Below, one piece after another: positions 5,407 to 47,048 of a stretch of 47,048 nt of DNA. The first letter of the stretch is position 1. Every line of letters starts with the position of its first letter. Location of the stretch: IMG/VR virus record IMGVR_UViG_2563366978_000001. The stretch is one strand, 5' to 3'. This DNA is from a virus. Taxonomy: Duplodnaviria > Heunggongvirae > Uroviricota > Caudoviricetes. The position numbers and the translations under genes are program-made. The notes beneath the pieces are model-generated. The model did no database searches and was not told where the DNA came from. It saw only the letters and a program-made list of their open reading frames with translations.

Positions 5407-5598
5407 TTACTCCCCGTTCACCGAAAATTCACGATAGAAACGTTTCCACATACGATAAGTCTGCGCAAATTGTTCACCACGAAACATCGCCTTCCTGGCC
5501 TTCATGTTTTCCTTGTGAGACTTTCGGTCTATGAACCAAAACCATTGATGGAACACACAAAGCAAGAGACACAAAGATAATATCCAATCATTACCCAT
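5407..5598 (-). CDS. Small hypothetical membrane protein, about 63 aa (MGNDWILSLCLLLCVF...)
   Basis: In-frame ATG at 5596-5598 just beyond the repA stop; the longer track ORF would overlap repA. Confidence 0.4.
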   Translation of the reverse strand: MGNDWILSLCLLLCVFHQWFWFIDRKSHKENMKARKAMFRGEQFAQTYRMWKRFYREFSVNGE

Positions 5599-8500
5599 AG
5601 AAAGCGCCCTGCTCTTCGTAGCTGCATGAGCTATTCCCCGTAATGTATTCACGTAACCGCCGCAGCTCATTGCTGGAAAGGTGATCCATGAACTCTGTGA
5701 GGTACAGGGATGCAAACGTCATAGCTATGCTGGCTGATGACCATGATGACATAGTGGCCAACTCCTCACTGGAAAGCGCACTCATCGCCCAGGACTCAGG
5801 TACAGCCACTGGCAACACGGCCAAAGCCTCAGAAATTACTGAATGAGGGGCGTTTTGAACCTGCTCGTTTGTGGATCGCGTTTTATCATCCATATATATA
5901 TTGAGATCCAAATCGCGATCCATTTCGATGGCTGTCTTCTCGGCTTTACGCGTTTTTAGGGTTAGGCCATCTTTCTGACGCTGAACAAGAATATCCAGCA
6001 TAAATGCCGCTGATTCAGGCTCAACAAAACGCAAGGTTGGACGCTTATCGCCGTCTCTGCCGCGACGTTTACCTGTTTTAAGGCCAAGAGAGTCGCAAAT
6101 GTTTTTAAACAACGCTTCCGGCACTTTAGGCTTCCCTTTTGGCGTCATAAAACCACCAATGTGCAGAACGTTATTCAACAGGTCACGGCGTTCGGCTGTC
6201 ATGAGGTTATCTCGAGCGAATTTGAGACGCTCCTGAGTCGCCTCGCCGGTCATAGTCTCAGGGTTGATACCGCAGTCGATAAAGTACTGCCGGAGAGTTG
6301 CTGATTTAAGCGCATAGAAACCGCGCGCCCCGACTTCAACAGTAGGAGTAGCTTTTACCTTGTGATCGATTATTCCAGGGAATTTAGTTTTAAAGACATC
6401 ATCAGCCTGCTCGCGAGTCATCGCGGTCACTACAAAATATTGCCACTGTCCCGCCTGACGGTATGTGTAGGTAAAATTGATGGCTGCTTCTTCCCGGTCG
6501 TAACGACGAGCTGTTACCTCATCTAAAAGCATTGTTTCATAGCGGCGAACTTTGTCTCGAGCACCATCGAAATAGAATTTCAGCGTGCCTTCTTCAACCG
6601 GTAGTTTCAGTTCGTTTTCAATATCCCAGCGGACAAGTTTTGCCTGTTCTTCAAGCGTCAGCGCGCGTTTTTTTAGCAGTTCTTCACGCTCTGATTCTTG
6701 TGGTGTTTCTGTATTGAGGTGCAGATCCAGTGTCTGTTCCCACACAATATCCCGCGCTTCTTTACGCAGATCTTTACCGATATCATTCGCAGCATAATCG
6801 GTGGCCAGCGGTGATACCTTATAACCGTCGCTGTGCATGATGCAGATCATGTTGCTGGCGTAGTCGTTACGCGCAGTCGCTTCAATTGCGGCTGCTTTAA
6901 TTTTCATCCTGGTAAAGTCGGTATTGGCCACCCCCATTGATATACGGTCGCCATCGAAAACGACATCCGTAAGTTCACCGTTCATACCTGCGGTAGCAAG
7001 CAATGCCTGGGCGAATGCTCGTTCTATTTTTTGCGGGTCAGTTTCACGTTTTGCACGAGCTTTATCAAAGCCGATAATAAATTCTTTTGCTGTACGGTCG
7101 CGGCGTAGCATTTGCACTGCATCACTGGGTACAACTTCACCACAGAACATGCCGAAATGACGGTCAAAATGTTTTTGCTCAATCGACACGCCGGATGAAA
7201 TAGACGGGCTATAAATCAGGCCGTCGTATTTTTTGACCATCTTTTTCGGTTGATTGGTAAATGCTTCAACTTCTGGCTCTGGTTTGTTTTTCTGGTTTAC
7301 ACACAGAAATTTCTTACCAGGAAAATGCATTCTCAGGGTGGCTGTCACATCTTCTGCAAAGGTGGAGCTGTCGGTGGCCAACATGATTTTTTCGCCATCC
7401 GATACAGCTTTCACCACCTCGGTCATGATGCGATCTTTTTCTGTATAAAAAACCCGGATTGGCTCACCTGTTTCGCGGTTGCGAACATCAACAGGTAATT
7501 CAATTACGTGGATCTGCAGCCATGCCGGTAAACCTAGTTCTTCACGGCGTTTCATAGCCAGTTCAGCCAGGTCAACCAGCAGATCGTTCGCATCAGCATC
7601 CACCATGATTGGGTGTTGTTCCGTTCTGGCCAGCGCGTCAATTAGCGTATTGAATACAGCCACCGGGTTTTCCATAGCCCGACCGGAAAGAACGGCACGT
7701 AGCCCTTGTGTGGCCTCGTCAAAGCCAAAATAGTCGTGCTGGCGCATCAACGGTTGCCAGCAGTTTTTAACAATCGAGTTTATGCAGATGGTCAGTTTAC
7801 TGGCGTATGGAGCCATTTCCTGATAGCCAGGGTCCTGATAGTGCAGGATATCGGTTTTTACACCTTTTCCTTCTGTCATCATTTCCCACAGGCCACCAAT
7901 AAGGGAAACACGGTGAGCAACAGAGATACCACGTTCTGAGCTATGCATTAAAGGTCGTAACAATCCAGTAGATTTGCCGGAACCCATACCAGCACGAACG
8001 ATGACTATCCCCTGTAGTGATTGCACATACTTCAGGACGTCATCGGTCATTACCGAAGTTTCAAGACGCTTATAGGTGATATGTTGAGGACGTTTATTGG
8101 GATCAGTTATGCGTTCGCTGAATGAGCGCGGAGCCTGGGCAATACGGCACTTTTTATTCAGGCGACGGGCAATGTGGTCTTTTACCGTAGCGCGATAGAT
8201 ATTTTCCAGCCCCATTTCACGCAGAACGATGCAGAACATGTTAAATAAGTCTGACGGACTGTTAGGAACCGGACAGGTTAGCATGCCAATATCCACCGCT
8301 CTCAGCAGCTCTTTGGCAAAAGTACGACGGTTATCCCGCTTAATTGTCTTCAGGCGGTTGAGCGTCAGAGATAGCAAATCAGTGCCGGTTTTCAGGCGGT
8401 TTGCAGTTGCAAACAGTTGACGTGCTGTTTCACGAAGTCCACGCAGTTTGTGCAGGTCGTTGAAGTCACTGCACTCCATTTGCGGATCGTCTTCAAAAGT

Positions 8501-9586
8501 TGGATAGACGCAGCGGACATCGTTGAATTTCGATAAGATTTCATAGCCAGTCCGCAGGCCGGTATTCCCTTTTCCTTCTGTGGCTGATTTCCGGTCATTA
8601 TCCAGTGCGCAGGTGATTTTTGCCGCCGGGTACATGTTTACCAGTTGTTCCACAACATGAACCATGTTATTAGCGGATACAGCGACAACCACAGCGTCAA
8701 AGCGTTTATCTTTTTTCGTGGCAAGCCAGATGGATGCACCAGTAGCAAAACCTTCTGTAACAGCGATGTTTTGCGCCCCTTTTAGCTCACCGATAACAAA
8801 GCAGGCACCGACGAAATCGCCGCTGGTTACGGCGCTGGTCTGGTATTTTCCACCTTGTTTGTCGATTCGCTGCCAACCCACAATACGACCATCGTAACGA
8901 CCGTCCAGGTGAGCCAGAGGGATAGCCATATACGTGGTTGGCCCCCTGCTCCATTTTGCGCTGTCGTGACTGGTCACGCGACGCACATCACACGAATTAA
9001 AAACGTCACGAATACCTTTTTTAATCGCATATGGCCATGAGCCGTCTTCTGCAGGAGCATGTTCCCACGCGCTGTGGAATGCCAGCCATCCCAGCAAACG
9101 TTCATGGTCCATTTGGTTGTTTTTCAGGTCATTAATTCGTTTTTGTTCTTCACGGCGACGACGTGCTTCGGCCTGACGTTCTATTCTTGCCCGTTCTTCT
9201 TCCGGTTGTGCGACCACGGTCGCATTATTCCGTTGTTGCTCACGGCGATATTCAGAAAACAGGAAGGAGAAACCGCTCCATGAGCCAGCATCGCTGCCTT
9301 TATGGACGAAGTTAATGAACGGGTAATCAATCCCTTTGCTGTGTTCCAGCCGGGAGTAAATTTCTACGCGTCCTTTGAGGCTCTTTTCGAGAGCTTCTGG
9401 AGATGTTTTATTGTATGAAGAGTAACGCTCAACACCCCCGCGAGGGTTGAGTTGGATGTTGTCGGAACAGGCAGACCAGTTGATACCAGCCATCTGTGCC
9501 AGCTCGGTTAGTTCATCCCGTGCTGCTTCAATTAGCGAGAACGGATCGCTGCCAAAGCGATCCGCATAGAAATCGTTTAATGTCAT
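5591..9586 (-). CDS. repA: Replication protein RepA (primase-helicase), 1331 aa
   Basis: Single ORF of N15 RepA size (about 1324 aa from memory) in the N15 position between immunity region and telN side. Confidence 0.9.
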   Translation of the reverse strand: MTLNDFYADRFGSDPFSLIEAARDELTELAQMAGINWSACSDNIQLNPRGGVERYSSYNKTSPEALEKSLKGRVEIYSRLEHSKGIDYPFINFVHKGSDAGSWSGFSFLFSEYRREQQRNNATVVAQPEEERARIERQAEARRRREEQKRINDLKNNQMDHERLLGWLAFHSAWEHAPAEDGSWPYAIKKGIRDVFNSCDVRRVTSHDSAKWSRGPTTYMAIPLAHLDGRYDGRIVGWQRIDKQGGKYQTSAVTSGDFVGACFVIGELKGAQNIAVTEGFATGASIWLATKKDKRFDAVVVAVSANNMVHVVEQLVNMYPAAKITCALDNDRKSATEGKGNTGLRTGYEILSKFNDVRCVYPTFEDDPQMECSDFNDLHKLRGLRETARQLFATANRLKTGTDLLSLTLNRLKTIKRDNRRTFAKELLRAVDIGMLTCPVPNSPSDLFNMFCIVLREMGLENIYRATVKDHIARRLNKKCRIAQAPRSFSERITDPNKRPQHITYKRLETSVMTDDVLKYVQSLQGIVIVRAGMGSGKSTGLLRPLMHSSERGISVAHRVSLIGGLWEMMTEGKGVKTDILHYQDPGYQEMAPYASKLTICINSIVKNCWQPLMRQHDYFGFDEATQGLRAVLSGRAMENPVAVFNTLIDALARTEQHPIMVDADANDLLVDLAELAMKRREELGLPAWLQIHVIELPVDVRNRETGEPIRVFYTEKDRIMTEVVKAVSDGEKIMLATDSSTFAEDVTATLRMHFPGKKFLCVNQKNKPEPEVEAFTNQPKKMVKKYDGLIYSPSISSGVSIEQKHFDRHFGMFCGEVVPSDAVQMLRRDRTAKEFIIGFDKARAKRETDPQKIERAFAQALLATAGMNGELTDVVFDGDRISMGVANTDFTRMKIKAAAIEATARNDYASNMICIMHSDGYKVSPLATDYAANDIGKDLRKEARDIVWEQTLDLHLNTETPQESEREELLKKRALTLEEQAKLVRWDIENELKLPVEEGTLKFYFDGARDKVRRYETMLLDEVTARRYDREEAAINFTYTYRQAGQWQYFVVTAMTREQADDVFKTKFPGIIDHKVKATPTVEVGARGFYALKSATLRQYFIDCGINPETMTGEATQERLKFARDNLMTAERRDLLNNVLHIGGFMTPKGKPKVPEALFKNICDSLGLKTGKRRGRDGDKRPTLRFVEPESAAFMLDILVQRQKDGLTLKTRKAEKTAIEMDRDLDLNIYMDDKTRSTNEQVQNAPHSVISEALAVLPVAVPESWAMSALSSEELATMSSWSSASIAMTFASLYLTEFMDHLSSNELRRLREYITGNSSCSYEEQGAFYG
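5873..5922. other. Candidate replication origin inside the 3' part of repA: 8-bp inverted repeat GGATCGCG/CGCGATCC around an AT-rich core with three GATC sites
   Basis: Direct reading; N15-type origins are reported within the 3' part of repA (from memory). Confidence 0.3.
9209..9224. repeat. sopC-like palindrome TGCGACCACGGTCGCA (inside repA); putative centromere site
   Basis: 16-bp core of the palindrome family repeated five times in the window. Confidence 0.55.
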
Positions 9587-13920: not shown

Positions 13921-14378
13921 GCGAAATTAATTACCAGGCACTGCGTGAGGCGGCGGAACGTGCAATTCCAGCAATGGAACGCCTGTTAATGTTGCCAGCT
14001 GATGATGATTTGTTAAGTGAACAGGAACTTAAAGATTACGGTGTGGATATTGATGCGCTCAACGCCTTCAAATTTCTGGCCGGACCAGAAACCGTGCTGG
14101 CACTACTGGATGAAAGGGAAAGAAACCAGCAATACATCAAACGCCGTGACCAGGAGAACGAGGATATTGCGCTAACGGTAGGGAAGCTGCGCGTTGAGCT
14201 GGAATCCGCAGAGAAGCGCATAGCAGAACTGGAAGCGCGGGAAATACTGCTCCCGGAACGTAGCAGTATGCTTCATCGAACAGATTTTAACGAGGATTAC
14301 CAAACGGTAATGGCATACAAAGTTTCTGAAGTCATCGCTGCAATCCGCGTCGCTGGCATTCGCATCAAAGGAGAGTGA
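13917..14378 (+). CDS. Ead/Ea22-like early-region protein, 153 aa
   Basis: N-terminus MSEINYQALREAAE resembles the Ead/Ea22 family of enterobacterial prophages (from memory). Confidence 0.55.
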   Translation: MSEINYQALREAAERAIPAMERLLMLPADDDLLSEQELKDYGVDIDALNAFKFLAGPETVLALLDERERNQQYIKRRDQENEDIALTVGKLRVELESAEKRIAELEAREILLPERSSMLHRTDFNEDYQTVMAYKVSEVIAAIRVAGIRIKGE

Positions 14379-14379
14379 T

Positions 14380-14925
14380 ATGACCACTTTCACCGACAAA
14401 GAACTGATTAAAGAAATCAAAGAACGTATCAGCAGCCTGGACGTACGAGACGATATTGAGCGCCGTGCTTATGAAATTGCTCTGGCATCGCTGGAAGAGG
14501 ATCCGGTGGCATGGCTGCATTCAGACAATGGCTTAGGTATTCCGGCAATAACGAGGAGTAAACACATTGCTGACAGTTGGTTATCAAAGGGCTGGTATGT
14601 TCAGCCGCTATATATAGCCAAGCCAGTACCGGTGGTGCCAGATGTTCGTCCGTCTTTAAATAATGGCATAGTCGGTTTTGATGAAGGCTGGAACGCCTGC
14701 CGCGCCGCCATGCTTCAGAGTCAAGGTAATTGCATTAAGGATGGTTGGATAAGCTGTAGTGAGCAAATGCCAGATGATGGTCGTATTCAGTTTTCTGTTT
14801 CACTTCCAGCAGCATGTGGTGGAGATAAATATTTTATTGATGGTGTATTTCAACCTTTGAGATATGAGCGTGACTGTGAAAAAGCGGTTGTGGCCGCTGG
14901 CGGTGTAGTTAATTGGGTTAAGTAA
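14380..14925 (+). CDS. Hypothetical early-region protein, 181 aa (DUF551-like C-terminus)
   Basis: C-terminal WISCSEQMPD... pattern common in lambdoid early regions. Confidence 0.5.
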   Translation: MTTFTDKELIKEIKERISSLDVRDDIERRAYEIALASLEEDPVAWLHSDNGLGIPAITRSKHIADSWLSKGWYVQPLYIAKPVPVVPDVRPSLNNGIVGFDEGWNACRAAMLQSQGNCIKDGWISCSEQMPDDGRIQFSVSLPAACGGDKYFIDGVFQPLRYERDCEKAVVAAGGVVNWVK

Positions 14926-14940
14926 TTTTTAGGAGGATTT

Positions 14941-15267
14941 ATGGCGCTGACACCGGCAGAACGGCAAAGAAGACGCAGGGAACGGTTGAAGAAGGAAGGA
15001 ACATCAAGACGTGACTGGATTCTGGAACCTGACGAGTTACGTATGTTGGGGGAAATTTGTGTATTGCGTAGACCAGGGCGAGTTCCATATTCAGAGAACG
15101 AAGTCATCGGACTGCTGATCAGGAAAAACTATAAGGAGTTGCAGAAACAGCTATCTACTACTTGTCCGCGATGTGGTCAAAAAATGCCTGTTTCAGAATG
15201 CATTTTTGATGGTGAAGGCTCATGCCACCTTACAACCACGAGGCTGAAACTTGCGCTCAAAGTGTGA
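14941..15267 (+). CDS. Hypothetical protein, 108 aa, with a possible Cys4 zinc ribbon
   Basis: CPRCGQ...C..C pattern; RBS AGGAGG. Confidence 0.5.
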   Translation: MALTPAERQRRRRERLKKEGTSRRDWILEPDELRMLGEICVLRRPGRVPYSENEVIGLLIRKNYKELQKQLSTTCPRCGQKMPVSECIFDGEGSCHLTTTRLKLALKV

Positions 15268-15285
15268 CTGGTCACGGAGGGATAA

Positions 15286-15441
15286 ATGGACAAAAAGGCA
15301 TTGCTTTTTGAAATGATACGAAAACGGAGCGAAAAGAGCTTTTCTGATGGTGGTGATGGGCTTTTGAAAGTGGTTGGGCGAGGCGTAGGAAGGGAACATA
15401 AGTATCAGACTACAAAGATATTTAACCAGTTAATCCATTGA
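15286..15441 (+). CDS. Small ORF, 51 aa (MDKKALLFEMIRKR...)
   Basis: Hand-translated; strong RBS GGAGGG 5 nt upstream of the ATG. Confidence 0.35.
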   Translation: MDKKALLFEMIRKRSEKSFSDGGDGLLKVVGRGVGREHKYQTTKIFNQLIH

Positions 15442-15469
15442 AAGTTGGCTATAAAATTTGAGTTTTACC

Positions 15470-15485
15470 CTGTAATTTTATACAG
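15470..15485. promoter_or_regulatory. LexA (SOS) box CTGTAATTTTATACAG
   Basis: Perfect CTGT-N8-ACAG with AT-rich spacer, about 25 bp upstream of the 15510 ORF. Confidence 0.65.
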
Positions 15486-15509
15486 TATCAAATAACCTTT
15501 TTTAATTAA

Positions 15510-15728
15510 ATGGTATTAGATTCAATGACTGAAGCACCTGTATCAACTCTTGAAGAACTCGGATCAAACCTAAAAGACATCGACGCCGTTTTGGATCTGG
15601 TTAGCGTTGCTCTGGCTTCTCCAGAAGCCAGCTTGCATCTTGGCGAGATTTCACGACTTGTTAGTATGTCGCGGGAGATTGCTCAGAATTGCCAACAAGT
15701 TATTGCTGTTGAGTGTTTGCATCATTGA
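15510..15728 (+). CDS. Small acidic protein, 72 aa; candidate SOS-controlled antirepressor (AntC-like role)
   Basis: ORF immediately downstream of the LexA box; role inferred. Confidence 0.45.
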   Translation: MVLDSMTEAPVSTLEELGSNLKDIDAVLDLVSVALASPEASLHLGEISRLVSMSREIAQNCQQVIAVECLHH

Positions 15729-15771
15729 TACACACCCCGCCCTTCTGGACGGGGTAGCGAAAAGGGTCTAA

Positions 15772-16059
15772 TCAATAGACGGCATTAATATTAATCGTTG
15801 CACCGCATGCTTGGGCATATTTTGATAAAGTTTTCATGCTTGCCCCTAAAGGATTGCTTTCCAGGCGGCTGATAGCTGACGGGCGCAATCCCATTCGTTC
15901 AGCCAGAGCTGACTTCGTTAAACCTGCTCTTTCCCTCATTTCGTATAACATTTCGACCATCTCCAGCTCTTTATCGGCCTCTTCATATCCTTTGATGGCT
16001 TCTGGAGTGTTGAGAAGTTTTTCTTTTACTTCGTTAAACGGGATGCCTTTCGCTTTCAT
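15772..16059 (-). CDS. HTH (XRE-family) antitoxin, HigA-like, 95 aa
   Basis: C-terminal HTH; overlaps the upstream toxin gene at 16059. Confidence 0.7.
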   Translation of the reverse strand: MKAKGIPFNEVKEKLLNTPEAIKGYEEADKELEMVEMLYEMRERAGLTKSALAERMGLRPSAISRLESNPLGASMKTLSKYAQACGATININAVY

Positions 16060-16370
16060 CAGTTCATCTCCTTCAGGCGAGTTCTGGCGATTTCGATAGC
16101 CTTCACCGGTGTTTTCTGTGTCTTTTTTACAAATGCATGCAATAGATAAATTTCGTTACCAGTCGCGTAGGCGTACAGCGTTCTTGCGATGTTTTTATCC
16201 CCTACTCGTAGTTCAAAAAGCCCTCCACCTATTACACGGCTATGGGGCATCTTCAGTTTGTTGCCTTCCTTCTCCAGTCGCTCAATTAATCTGGTCATGC
16301 GACCTCGCAAATCATCTGGTAGTTCAAGCAGTTCATCCAGTGCTGCAGGGTGGGTTATCACGTTAAACAT
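16059..16370 (-). CDS. RelE/ParE-superfamily toxin, HigB-like, 103 aa
   Basis: Small basic protein upstream of the HTH antitoxin in toxin-first (HigBA) order. Confidence 0.65.
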   Translation of the reverse strand: MFNVITHPAALDELLELPDDLRGRMTRLIERLEKEGNKLKMPHSRVIGGGLFELRVGDKNIARTLYAYATGNEIYLLHAFVKKTQKTPVKAIEIARTRLKEMN

Positions 16371-16428
16371 ATTATAGCCTCCATAGCCATAAAATACACC
16401 AAAACAAGAAAAAAGCGCAAATTAAAAA

Positions 16429-16446
16429 TTTCACTAAAAAGTGAAA
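16429..16446. promoter_or_regulatory. Palindrome TTTCAC-TAAAAA-GTGAAA in the toxin-antitoxin promoter region; putative antitoxin operator
   Basis: Inverted repeat about 60 bp upstream of the toxin start codon. Confidence 0.45.
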
Positions 16447-16517
16447 AATAACACTGGATGTGTTCGTTTGGCAGAGTTACAGTTCGTGTCATTGAGGGGC
16501 AATAACCCACTAACTAT

Positions 16518-16757
16518 ATGAATTTGGAGGATATTATGAATTATCAAGGTAACGAAAAAATGCGCGACGACGTTGCGGAGATAGCTAACGAACTGTATGA
16601 GTTGTGGCAGAAGGTTGAACGTTTCGAAAAGGAATATGGTTTCAACAGTACCAACCTGGCAGACCGACTGGCTGGTCGCTTAGTTGGGACTATGGGGCCA
16701 AAACTGGCTGAGTTGAACCGCTTTATGGCTGATGTTGATTTCCAGTTTCAAGATTGA
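16518..16757 (+). CDS. Hypothetical protein, 79 aa
   Basis: ORF with RBS GGAGGA. Confidence 0.5.
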   Translation: MNLEDIMNYQGNEKMRDDVAEIANELYELWQKVERFEKEYGFNSTNLADRLAGRLVGTMGPKLAELNRFMADVDFQFQD

Positions 16758-16770
16758 TTAGAGAGGCGTT

Positions 16771-16998
16771 ATGAATATTAATGAAATTCGTGGAAATATG
16801 ACTGAAGCGGCCCTGAGTGTGGAATGTGTTATGCGTGGATACCCACGCATTTCCCTGAAAGAGTTAAGCGAAGCCTGTTTTTTGAGTCAAGCTGCCGTTG
16901 AATTTATCATCGAACAGATGATCTGTTTTGGGGTTGCAAAGCGTAGCGGGTCTGGTCGATATTCTTTGACCGATGAATATAAGCAGGCAACTTTCTAA
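16771..16998 (+). CDS. Hypothetical protein, 75 aa
   Basis: ORF with RBS GAGAGG. Confidence 0.5.
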   Translation: MNINEIRGNMTEAALSVECVMRGYPRISLKELSEACFLSQAAVEFIIEQMICFGVAKRSGSGRYSLTDEYKQATF

Positions 16999-17001
16999 AA
17001 A

Positions 17002-17023
17002 CTGTGCGACCACGGTCGCACAG
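17002..17023. repeat. sopC-like palindrome CTGTGCGACCACGGTCGCACAG; putative centromere site
   Basis: 22-bp palindrome just upstream of the candidate late promoter region. Confidence 0.65.
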
Positions 17024-17107
17024 CACAAAAACGAAAAAGCTTGGCAAAATTACGGTTTTTAGTTATTGTTTTGTTAAGTTGGGTTTTTTGTACCCAACAG
17101 CCAACAA

Positions 17108-17131
17108 GCCGCCTTTATGGCGGTTTTTTTG
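17108..17131 (+). terminator. Intrinsic terminator (GCCGCC-TTTAT-GGCGG then T7); candidate tR'-like terminator of a short leader transcript
   Basis: Stem-loop plus 7-T tract about 60 nt downstream of a putative promoter (TTGGCA-17-TATTGT). Confidence 0.45.
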
Positions 17132-17265
17132 TGCCTGAAAAGTGGGCGCAGGACAAGTTGCAGCTTGTCCTGCGGTCAACCCATGCCAGAGCTATAGGCT
17201 GAACCTAAAGCCCACCCGCGATGCGCATCGCCGGGTTAGCTTACCCAGGCAAAAAAATAATAGCT

Positions 17266-44436: not shown

Positions 44437-45426
44437 TTAGTTATTTTTTACATCGGAAGAATTTCCAAACGCCTCCTCAAGAATAGATTCAATTTTACTC
44501 ATTAGGTGCGATGGTATTTTTCTGTTATCTAATTTTAATGTTGTGAAATTTTTCCCATATTTCGCCACAACACCGTCTCCATATTTCTTTTCCCTTTTCT
44601 CTCCATGTGAATTGTTTTTCTCAACAATAATGAAATCATGAAGAGCCTGTATTATTCTTTGCGCATCTAAACTTTCACCTGATTTTTTCATCCTCAGCAA
44701 CTGAGATGCAGCATTTTTCATGGCTGCTTCCTGTCCCTGATATGCTTTAAAAAGAGCGTCTCCTGCTCTGGCTGATAACTCACCAGGATGGTTAAATATT
44801 GCCAATATATCTTTAGGTAAACCGGCTGTATTAATACATCGGCTGATAATATTTCTATCCACGCCTTCGGCTTCAGCTAAAGATTTTACGTTACCGTCAA
44901 ATTCATGGAGCCTTCGCAGGTATCTTTTCCCCCTTTCATAGGCGCTGATAGGTCTATAGTCGTTGCCTATCTGCGATAACCATTGCATTTGTTCATCATC
45001 TAAATCGCCAATAAGAACACGATAATCGCATCCAGTTATAATGGCTGCTTTACGTCTTCGAGAACCATCAGCTACTTCAACAATACCTGACACTTTTCTT
45101 GCGAAAGCCGGATTTTGTTGCCCAGAAGTTAGAAAAGATGGAATTAAATCAGCTAGAGAAGATTCATTTAATAAATCTTGATCACGCTCATTACCTAGCC
45201 ATACCATTGTTGCCATTTCTACTTTATCTGCGGGGATCGTTTCTAACTTAAAGTTAACATTACGTCCGCATACTGGCAAAGTTATGCTATTACCGGTTAA
45301 TGAACTCAGTTGACGTTTTAAATCACCAACCATAGGTGATACCGGCTGATGTTCAGGTGCATGATGATTATTACTCATAATGCGATTAATATCCGGAGCA
45401 TTTTTTAGAAGAGAGCGTTGTTTCAT
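44437..45426 (-). CDS. sopB: Partition protein SopB (ParB family)
   Basis: 329 aa; conserved block ITLPVCGR...SGNERDQ...DGSRRRKAA...GNDYRP as in F SopB. Confidence 0.95.
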   Translation of the reverse strand: MKQRSLLKNAPDINRIMSNNHHAPEHQPVSPMVGDLKRQLSSLTGNSITLPVCGRNVNFKLETIPADKVEMATMVWLGNERDQDLLNESSLADLIPSFLTSGQQNPAFARKVSGIVEVADGSRRRKAAIITGCDYRVLIGDLDDEQMQWLSQIGNDYRPISAYERGKRYLRRLHEFDGNVKSLAEAEGVDRNIISRCINTAGLPKDILAIFNHPGELSARAGDALFKAYQGQEAAMKNAASQLLRMKKSGESLDAQRIIQALHDFIIVEKNNSHGEKREKKYGDGVVAKYGKNFTTLKLDNRKIPSHLMSKIESILEEAFGNSSDVKNN

Positions 45427-46592
45427 TCTTCGTTCTCCCAGCGAGGTTTTATTAGATCATCAAAAATTTCTCGACAAACAGGGTCCCATATAGAGACGGC
45501 ATTTCTCCATGCATTAAGTGTTGAACGCTGGTTTGCCGCTTGTTCAAATACTGTTCGCATTTTTATCTGACCTTTACCTACTTCATCGGTAACGCGTACA
45601 ACCTGACGTAATACCATTGATCCCCATGTATTTCTTATTTGCTCTTCCATCCATCGTGATTGATTTCCTGTAGTGAGACTATATTTAGTCAGAAGCAAGC
45701 GAACGGTCGGCTCAAATCCGCCTAGGTCAACGCTTTCTAGGAGATCGAGAAGCATTGTGAAAAACTGTAGAACAGAGGCGTAATCAAATAATTCTGCAGG
45801 GGTAGCAACAACGATAACGTCAGCTGCGCAAACAACGTTAATGGTTCCTGTACCGAGGTTTGGAGCACTATCTATAACGATAACATCGTAGTTATCCCAA
45901 ACTGATTCTATAGCTGCGCGTAGCATCAGGTGAGGAGGGTGAGGCAATTTACCCTGAGCATGATATTGCATGAGATCTGTTTCTATACGGTGTAAAGCTA
46001 GGCAGCTAGGAATAATGTCCAGTCCAGGCCAGCATGTTGGTTTTATAGCATATTCAGCGTTATCGCGTTCGCCCAAGTAAAATGGCAGTAAAGTATCCTC
46101 GGCATGTATATGTAAATCAGGTACATAACCGTGATACATGGAGGCTGTTCCCTGAGGATCGTTACCTTCAACTAAAAGAACACGATGACCTTGTAATGCT
46201 AGCCATTGTGCCTGATGTACTGCAGACGATGTTTTATAAACGCCGCCTTTGTGTGACATAACAGCAAGCACAACTGGGTTTTTATCTTGTGGCCGTTGGT
46301 TTGGGTTGCCAAAAACAGCTCGCATACTATTGATTTGATCTATGGTATAACCGGCACGACGTTCAACTCTTCCTCTCATTTCAAAGTCAGGTGCAGGTAA
46401 ACGCCCGTTCTTCTCAGCATCTCTTATTGCTTGAGGAGTTACACCAATTAAATCTGCTACTTCAGTTATCCCCCATCTACGCGTGATACGCCGAGCTTCA
46501 GGACTATCATCACCGAATTGAGCTATAGCAATTGCTTGGGTCATTTCTTGACCGCGCGTAACACAATCTTGTAATAACTTTTTCAAAGACAT
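45423..46592 (-). CDS. sopA: Partition ATPase SopA (ParA family)
   Basis: 389 aa; Walker A KGGVYKTS and long blocks identical to F SopA. Confidence 0.95.
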   Translation of the reverse strand: MSLKKLLQDCVTRGQEMTQAIAIAQFGDDSPEARRITRRWGITEVADLIGVTPQAIRDAEKNGRLPAPDFEMRGRVERRAGYTIDQINSMRAVFGNPNQRPQDKNPVVLAVMSHKGGVYKTSSAVHQAQWLALQGHRVLLVEGNDPQGTASMYHGYVPDLHIHAEDTLLPFYLGERDNAEYAIKPTCWPGLDIIPSCLALHRIETDLMQYHAQGKLPHPPHLMLRAAIESVWDNYDVIVIDSAPNLGTGTINVVCAADVIVVATPAELFDYASVLQFFTMLLDLLESVDLGGFEPTVRLLLTKYSLTTGNQSRWMEEQIRNTWGSMVLRQVVRVTDEVGKGQIKMRTVFEQAANQRSTLNAWRNAVSIWDPVCREIFDDLIKPRWENEE

Positions 46593-46882: not shown

Positions 46883-47022
46883 GAACACAATCAAAGATCG
46901 TAAAACAACAATAATAATTCACACAAAATAAAGAACACAAATACAGAAAACAACAACACAATAAAAACAAGAGAACACAAGCTATAAATATTACACCAAT
47001 AGAGAACACTAATCAAGAACAT
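46883..47022. repeat. Right telomere-proximal repeat array: AGAACAC at 46883, 46933, 46973, 47003, and AGAACAT at 47016
   Basis: Direct reading; spacing shortens toward the end (50, 40, 30, 13 bp). Confidence 0.65.
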
Positions 47023-47048
47023 ATCAGCACATAATTCCCCATTATACG
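47022..47048. other. Half of the telomere resolution palindrome (telO/telRL-like): TATCAGCACATAATTCCCCATTATACG
   Basis: Matches the N15 telRL half-site TATCAGCACACAATTGCCCATTATACGC as I remember it with 2 mismatches; the window ends one base short of the predicted symmetry centre. Confidence 0.8.

Follow-up and report, generated by a model that had tools for sequence, protein, structure and literature searches.

The 47,048-nt stretch of viral DNA analysed here (IMG/VR record IMGVR_UViG_2563366978_000001, Caudoviricetes; hereafter the window) carries two overlapping minus-strand genes between positions 15772 and 16370, preceded by a short intergenic palindrome. With a probability of about 85%, we read this locus as the gp49/gp48 (Tad-Ata) type II toxin-antitoxin (TA) operon of an N15-like linear plasmid prophage, a "reverse-order" HigBA-like module whose autorepression operator would be the palindrome. 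An original prediction, made from the DNA letters and translated open reading frames, had described a toxin of the RelE/ParE fold ahead of and overlapping a helix-turn-helix (HTH) antitoxin. This description is borne out by the gene layout (minus strand, 1-nt overlap), by Pfam matches to PF05973 and HTH_3, and by AlphaFold2 modeling with Foldseek comparison. What the prediction did not recognise is that the pair is already known: its orthologue is a TA system that has been characterised and is annotated as a matter of routine. The analysis thus confirms the expected addiction module beside the SopAB partition genes in an N15-like phage-plasmid, a result that is useful for annotation and unsurprising.

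The Gp49-type toxin and its antitoxin

The toxin gene (16370..16059, minus strand) is an open reading frame of 103 amino acids and the orthologue of N15 gene 49 (Tad or Gp49-type, HigB-like, RelE superfamily). It is preceded, 7 nt upstream of the ATG, by a GGAGG Shine-Dalgarno sequence (16382..16378, minus strand) that is invariant in 37 distinct N15-like variants of the locus. According to tblastn, its product is 92.2% identical to N15 gp49, the namesake and founder protein of the Pfam family Gp49, while the N15-like phages YDC107_1 and PhiR46_1 encode proteins with 100% identity to it. The match to this family (PF05973) covers profile positions 1–90 of 90 with an expectation value (E) of 2.5e-29 and a score of 101.6 bits against a cut-off of 23.9. 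It was the sole match reported by the Pfam search, in which neither HigB_toxin (PF05015) nor ParE (PF05016) was found at E ≤ 0.01. No NCBIfam model matched the toxin, and PHROGs labels its family "unknown function".

Structure prediction, which the original prediction had proposed as a check, points in the same direction. The AlphaFold2 model, computed from an alignment of 25 sequences, is confident (predicted local distance difference test score 89.4, predicted template modeling score 0.82). Its best Foldseek match is HigB of Streptococcus pneumoniae (6af4; E=3e-6, template modeling (TM) score 0.79), followed by Mycobacterium tuberculosis HigB1 bound to the ribosome with its mRNA target (7nbu; E=9e-6) and by several RelE structures including 4fxh and 1wmi (E=4e-4 to 6e-4). 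ParE structures rank far lower, with E of at least 1.4e-2. Moreover, a sequence search against the PDB matched the toxin and the antitoxin to chains A and B, respectively, of one solved HigBA complex, 6af3. In the 25-sequence family alignment K82, K83, and R63 of the toxin are invariant and R55 is nearly so (≥90%). As a lead only on the catalytic lysine, we noted that, in the alignment to the K95A mutant chain of M. tuberculosis HigB1, K82 pairs with what may be the substituted alanine. By sequence and predicted fold, the toxin is a Gp49-family member of the RelE/ParE superfamily. The name HigBA-like, which the original prediction had chosen, is justified for the gene order and the superfamily of the pair, but the toxin lies outside the PF05015 family.

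Orthologous to N15 gene 48 (Ata, a HigA-like Xre-HTH protein), the antitoxin gene (16059..15772, minus strand) encodes 95 amino acids with 86% identity to N15 gp48. Its ATG shares a single base, 16059, with the toxin stop codon (TGATG) and is preceded by AAGGAG 8 nt upstream. Residues 38–88 match Pfam HTH_3 (E=1.6e-12), and sequence matches in the PDB comprise HipB, HigA2, and the S. pneumoniae HigA chain 6af3_B. NCBIfam yielded only HTH matches below threshold, and PHROGs labels the protein "transcriptional regulator". The order of toxin first and HTH antitoxin downstream was found in all relatives examined, with overlaps of -1 to -14 nt.

The closest known counterpart is the orthologous gp49/gp48 pair of phage N15, which has the same protein lengths (103 and 95 amino acids) and the same 1-nt overlap, and which lies at the same site between gp47 and gp50/gp51 on the same type of linear plasmid prophage. 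Upstream of it is a palindrome identical to the one in the window, at equal distance from the ATG. The two loci have nonetheless diverged at the nucleotide level: a megablast search with the 1.4-kb region gave no N15 match, and the promoter hexamers read TTGCGC-18-TATTTT in the window versus TTGTGT-17-TGgTATATT in N15. The palindrome itself is labeled a putative terminator (stem_loop 40551..40571) in the N15 record, not an operator. A literature search turned up no paper dealing with an operator of N15 gp48/gp49.

To judge from its title and from papers citing it, the 2007 study of Dziewit et al. in J Bacteriol 189:1983 reportedly described the N15 gp49/gp48-type TA system as a stabilising system. 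Growth inhibition by the toxin, its neutralisation by the antitoxin, and stabilisation of an unstable plasmid are reported in this way for the N15 homologue (PMC2701414, PMC2654960). Three papers refer to that study for the N15 pair (PMC2701414, PMC5906591, PMC3581621). In these, the Tad toxins are equated with COG4679/DUF891, with N15 gp49 as an example, and are considered related to RelE (PMC2701414); the gp49-gp48 locus of the N15 prophage is presented as a chaperone-less HigBA-like TA locus and a relative of mycobacterial HigBA (PMC3581621); and toxins with a Gp49 domain are said to be always encoded in toxin-first operons (PMC5906591). The same source reports repression of the Acinetobacter baumannii HigBA2 promoter by its antitoxin, with the toxin serving as co-repressor, as well as plasmid stabilisation by the module (PMC5906591). 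Elsewhere the gp49 family is tabulated under ribosome-dependent mRNA degradation with the order toxin, then antitoxin (PMC11980606).

The wider group of HigBA modules with a Gp49 domain (A. baumannii HigBA2, HigB1/HigA1 of the M. tuberculosis toxin-antitoxin-chaperone (TAC) locus, and S. pneumoniae 6af3/6af4) shares with the pair PF05973, the toxin-first order, and the Xre-HTH antitoxin. The predicted toxin fold is also the same (TM 0.75–0.79), at about 25–30% identity over the structure-aligned regions. The mycobacterial TAC possesses, in addition, a SecB-like chaperone gene, whereas the pair in the window is without one. Canonical HigBA systems (Rts1, E. coli K-12, V. cholerae) likewise combine the reverse gene order and an mRNA interferase of the RelE superfamily with an HTH antitoxin that acts on palindromes in its own promoter (PMC11980606), but their toxins belong to PF05015 instead of PF05973. 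Phd-Doc of the phage-plasmid P1 follows a like logic, as it is an addiction module on a low-copy plasmid prophage beside an active partition system. Its toxin, a Fic-fold kinase, and its antitoxin, of the Phd/YefM type, are however unrelated, and its gene order is opposite.

The intergenic palindrome

The original prediction had placed a palindrome of the form TTTCAC-N6-GTGAAA in the promoter of the pair. This motif is found exactly at 16429–16446, where it is better described as a perfect palindrome with 7-bp arms and a 4-nt spacer, TTTCACT-N4-AGTGAAA (plus strand, spacer AAAA), which occurs once in the window and which we propose as the operator of the antitoxin or of the TA complex. It does not, however, overlap the predicted core promoter. 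The σ70 promoter predicted for the TA operon (16420..16391, minus strand) consists of a -35 hexamer TTGCGC (16420..16415), an 18-nt spacer, and a -10 hexamer TATTTT (16396..16391), and was placed by reading the sequence and by alignment to relatives with better hexamers, which are TTTACA-18-TATAAT in the relative L047 and the N15 hexamers given above, present also in Klebsiella phages. Transcription would accordingly start near 16384, which leaves only a short leader. A gap of 8 nt separates the palindrome from the predicted -35 downstream of it, and the center of the palindrome lies at about -53 from the inferred start, in the A/T-rich zone of UP elements.

Two other promoters were considered and rejected. 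The sole site called by the consensus scan (16540..16513, minus strand, TTCATA-16-TATAGT) would, if used, set the palindrome inside a long 5' leader. Its -10 is poorly conserved (majority frequency 0.3–0.6; TGCGGT in N15), and it falls within the start and ribosome binding region of gene 50, so that its conservation is explained by the opposite strand. A further promoter under the palindrome (TTCACT-17-TATTGT) can be read in N15 and the Klebsiella phages, but at the -10 position the window has ATTTGC.

Comparison across relatives, for which 68 viral and 80 genomic loci were collected, provides the main argument for a function of the palindrome. The block TTATTTTTCACTTTTTAGTGAAATTT is identical in N15, although the surrounding intergenic DNA has diverged. 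No other intergenic block is as well conserved as the palindrome among the 37 distinct N15-like variants: its mean majority frequency is 0.97 compared to 0.81–0.87 in the rest of the intergenic region, 0.886 in the toxin coding sequence, and 0.855 in that of the antitoxin. The comparison was extended to 18 lineages with toxin identities from 100% down to about 53%, in which inverted repeats were required to have arms of 6 bp or longer, separated by no more than 6 nt. Such a repeat is centered between -85 and -55 of the toxin ATG, mostly at -61 to -70, in 15 of the 18, whereas shuffled controls gave 1.6 lineages on average and never more than 6, and other 30-nt windows of the real sequences gave 1–3. 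It should be noted that the lineages are related by descent and that the N15-type copies are not independent, so that changes affecting both arms of the core are more informative than the count itself.

At least seven different cores, altered on both arms, occur among the lineages. N15-like phages have CAC/GTG, Xenorhabdus L072 and Erwinia L077 have CTC/GAG, and ATC/GAT is found in L054 and Gilliamella. The remaining cores are CTAT/ATAG in L050, TTATAT/ATATAA in L079, TTTAGTTA/TAACTAAA in Erwinia tasmaniensis L075, and AGTTAAT/ATTAACT, present in two copies, in Edaphovirga L076. All lineages with the predicted recognition helix PSAISRLE have the CAC/GTG core, whereas the helices QSGINSLM, QSALNRLE, PSTITQLE, PPAINRLE, PSNINRIE, and PSNLNKLE mostly occur with other cores, and the helix PSAITRLE with mixed ones. 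The inverted repeat is also kept in lineages where gp50, gp51, and gp47 are undetectable (for gp50/gp51: L072, L074–L081, and L055), and it therefore appears to travel with the TA pair. Half-sites 11 bp apart fit an HTH dimer bound to one face of the helix. Taken together, this is the pattern to be expected if a dimeric HTH protein and its cognate operator co-evolve. The assumption that the palindrome is the pair's own operator, as originally predicted, thus gains good comparative support from its position, the two-arm changes, and its retention without gp50/gp51, and on these sequence comparisons it may be called a probable operator.

For the annotation of N15 this would mean a small refinement, as the "terminator" of its record behaves like a protein-binding operator that keeps its position across the wider Gp49-HTH family and varies on both arms. 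In addition, the natural series of operator and recognition helix variants is a possible data set on the divergence of autoregulatory specificity in TA systems.

Two further observations concern the same intergenic region. In Klebsiella phiKO2-like loci (L030–L045), an imperfect 7-N4-7 site, TTTCTCT-ATTG-TGTGAAA, abuts the first palindrome and overlaps the -35 (about -60 to -40 of the ATG). This second site is degenerate in N15 and absent in the window; the arrangement suggests tandem operators in some relatives. Between the palindrome and gene 50 lies a second conserved non-coding block (16467–16487; ACGAACTGTAACTCTGCC in minus-strand reading), which is nearly invariant in the 37 N15-like variants and whose "TAACTCT" core is recognisable in the distant relatives L047, L050, L054, L073, and L079. 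This block may contain the promoter of gene 50 (-10 TACAGT, 16478–16483, plus strand) or another regulatory site.

Proposed mechanism and competing explanations

By analogy with N15 gp49/gp48, A. baumannii HigB2, and M. tuberculosis HigB1, the toxin would act as a ribosome-dependent mRNA endonuclease, which the antitoxin would neutralise through direct binding. If, as in such systems, the antitoxin is the shorter-lived partner, a cell that has lost the low-copy linear plasmid would be arrested or killed, and this post-segregational killing would complement partition by SopAB. We further propose that the 7-N4-7 palindrome, whose half-sites are one helical turn apart, is occupied by an antitoxin dimer, either by itself or together with the toxin as co-repressor, and that the operon is thereby repressed by its own product. 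Because the palindrome abuts the predicted -35 from upstream, in the UP-element zone, repression would proceed via blocked upstream contacts of RNA polymerase or via the -35 region and not by coverage of the -10.

Several points weigh against this interpretation. To begin with, toxicity, neutralisation, lability of the antitoxin, and DNA binding are all inferred. The palindrome is by itself statistically unremarkable: 10% of dinucleotide-preserving shuffles of the 165-nt intergenic region (34% G+C) yield an equally good repeat (perfect arms of 7 bp or more, no more than 8 nt apart), or 5.5% if at least two G:C pairs are required, and the whole window contains 85 repeats of this quality. Its significance consequently derives from the comparative data only. 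These data, in turn, are not free of exceptions. The match between helix and core is imperfect, as L073 pairs an "SAIT" helix with CAC/GTG, and no perfect repeat is present in L046, L051, and L074. Furthermore, about one third of the distinct N15-like variants have a mismatch of 1–2 nt in one arm, concentrated in the core triplet, which indicates that the constraint on the palindrome is not absolute. These variants (L003, L004, L009, L012, L021, L027, L031–L033, L042, L057, and L070) stem from otherwise nearly identical phages and show the changes CAC to AAC, CGC, CTC, CCC, or ATC, or GTG to GTT, alongside an unchanged recognition helix; they might represent either drift or operator-down variants in which TA expression is altered. 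The consensus promoter scan did not call the proposed TTGCGC-18-TATTTT promoter, whose hexamers are too weak, and a site that precedes the predicted -35 instead of covering the core promoter would be unusual for a simple repressor. Finally, deletion of the homologues in SXT left the native element stable (PMC2654960), so that stabilisation of a test plasmid is no proof of a stabilising role in the native replicon.

The identity of the DNA-binding partner and of the regulated operon is where other explanations of the palindrome have to be weighed. As the site lies within the 165-nt region that separates the divergent genes 49 and 50, it could serve the gene 50-51 operon, or both promoters, and its ligand could be the antitoxin or some other phage protein. 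The possible gene-50 -10 within the strongly conserved block would even place the palindrome approximately midway, at about -52 from both inferred starts, although both promoters are predicted only. In lineages with undetectable gp50/gp51, however, the inverted repeat is found at equal distance from the toxin ATG, and its core tends to vary with the recognition helix of the antitoxin. The retention without these genes argues that the palindrome belongs primarily to the TA operon, and we regard a role for genes 50-51, alone or shared, as unlikely. Similarly unlikely is the broader idea that the palindromes form a family-wide, quickly re-specified operator "code" in the UP-element zone, about halfway between the divergent promoters of the TA pair and gene 50-51, through which the antitoxin or the TA complex might also regulate neighboring phage genes; if true, it would link the status of the addiction module to prophage gene expression.

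The N15 GenBank record implies a different function, that of a rho-independent terminator. Flanking runs of T and A fit this annotation, as does the predicted RNA fold, which at -6.2 kcal/mol is better than that of shuffled sequences (z = -3.3), and two-arm changes would preserve an RNA hairpin just as well as a protein-binding site. On the other hand, the stem is weak, with 2 G:C among 7 pairs, and a terminator scan made no call. Its location between divergent genes, upstream of both predicted promoters, means that no known transcript reaches the site, and a constant spacing to the toxin ATG, kept in unrelated genomic settings, is what a protein site near a promoter would show. A terminator is therefore highly improbable.

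For the toxin, membership of the RelE/ParE superfamily and the generic NCBI label "RelE/ParE family toxin" would also allow a ParE-like gyrase poison instead of an mRNA endonuclease. This is very unlikely given the Pfam match to Gp49 in place of ParE, the structural neighbors HigB, HigB1, and RelE at E of 1e-6 to 1e-4 as opposed to 1.4e-2 and above for ParE, the tabulated activity of the gp49 family (PMC11980606), and the conserved basic residues K82, K83, R63, and R55. As to the biological role, the original prediction had also suggested abortive infection, and the module might chiefly provide anti-phage defense of this type, or exclude rival phage-plasmids, rather than cause addiction. What speaks for this is precedent only, namely the triggering of HigBAC by a lambda tail protein, which leads to abortive infection, and the existence of defense toxins in the RelE/ParE superfamily (PMC11980606). 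In the locus itself the idea found no support, as searches of PADLOC-DB v2 gave weak partial matches only: NsnC for the toxin (E=2.6e-7 over 53 residues, 43–95) and generic HTH models for the antitoxin, with no defense system common to both proteins. Since the literature on the N15 homologue describes stabilisation and all E. coli copies reside on low-copy phage-plasmids, addiction is the simpler explanation and a chiefly defensive role is unlikely. The two roles are nevertheless compatible, and neither excludes the other.

Replicon, distribution, and neighboring genes

The linear plasmid context named in the original prediction is confirmed here: the window as a whole corresponds to a complete linear plasmid prophage of the N15 type. 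It encodes a protelomerase (149–2050; Pfam TelK/ResT domains), a large RepA (5591–9586; Pfam Toprim/ori-binding), and SopB/SopA (44437–46592; Pfam SopB_HTH and ParA ATPase). Furthermore, its last 32 nt (47017–47048) match the left half of N15 telRL at 94% identity, stopping 1 nt short of the annotated cut, and thus represent a 3' telomere half-site. The matching 28-nt telomere half is absent from the 5' end, where the window starts at the equivalent of the first base past the N15 half-site; this probably results from trimming or collapse of the hairpin telomere in the assembly.

The TA locus was found in 16 of 5,426 complete E. coli genomes, in every case on a plasmid and never on the chromosome. 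The plasmids among those listed are roughly 36–75 kb in size, most of them about 46 kb. For the 12 of these 16 plasmids that are listed, RefSeq consistently annotates the toxin as "type II toxin-antitoxin system RelE/ParE family toxin", with an HTH protein or transcriptional regulator as partner, and N15 gene 49 bears the same toxin label.

The neighbors gp47, gp50, and gp51 are arranged as in N15, with genes 49 and 50 divergent. Just 3' of the antitoxin stop, a G+C-rich hairpin (15731..15759, minus strand) is common to the operon and the convergent gene 47. Its predicted fold energy on the minus strand is -20.6 kcal/mol (z = -3.1), but no T-run follows, and the terminator scan therefore did not call it. 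The hairpin may serve as a terminator or stabilise the 3' end of the mRNA. N15 has at the corresponding place an unrelated, canonical T-tailed terminator. The gp47 homologue (15510–15728, plus strand) shows a weak PHROG match to the "anti-repressor" family phrog_10889 (E=1.4e-6), and the gp51 homologue (16771–16998, plus strand) a marginal Pfam match to the PCI domain (E=3.6e-4; 21.1 bits, just under the cut-off of 22).

Lastly, some IMG/VR contigs contain the TA locus twice, as inverted pairs at mirror-image coordinates (L023/L024, L005/L011, L034/L044, L035/L039, and L038/L043). In IMGVR_UViG_2791355284_000001 (92,470 bp; L023/L024), for example, the copies are found at 13933–17241 (reversed) and 75230–78538. 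Such contigs look like head-to-head palindromic dimers of a linear plasmid of about 46 kb, formed either by assembly around the hairpin telomere or as replication intermediates.

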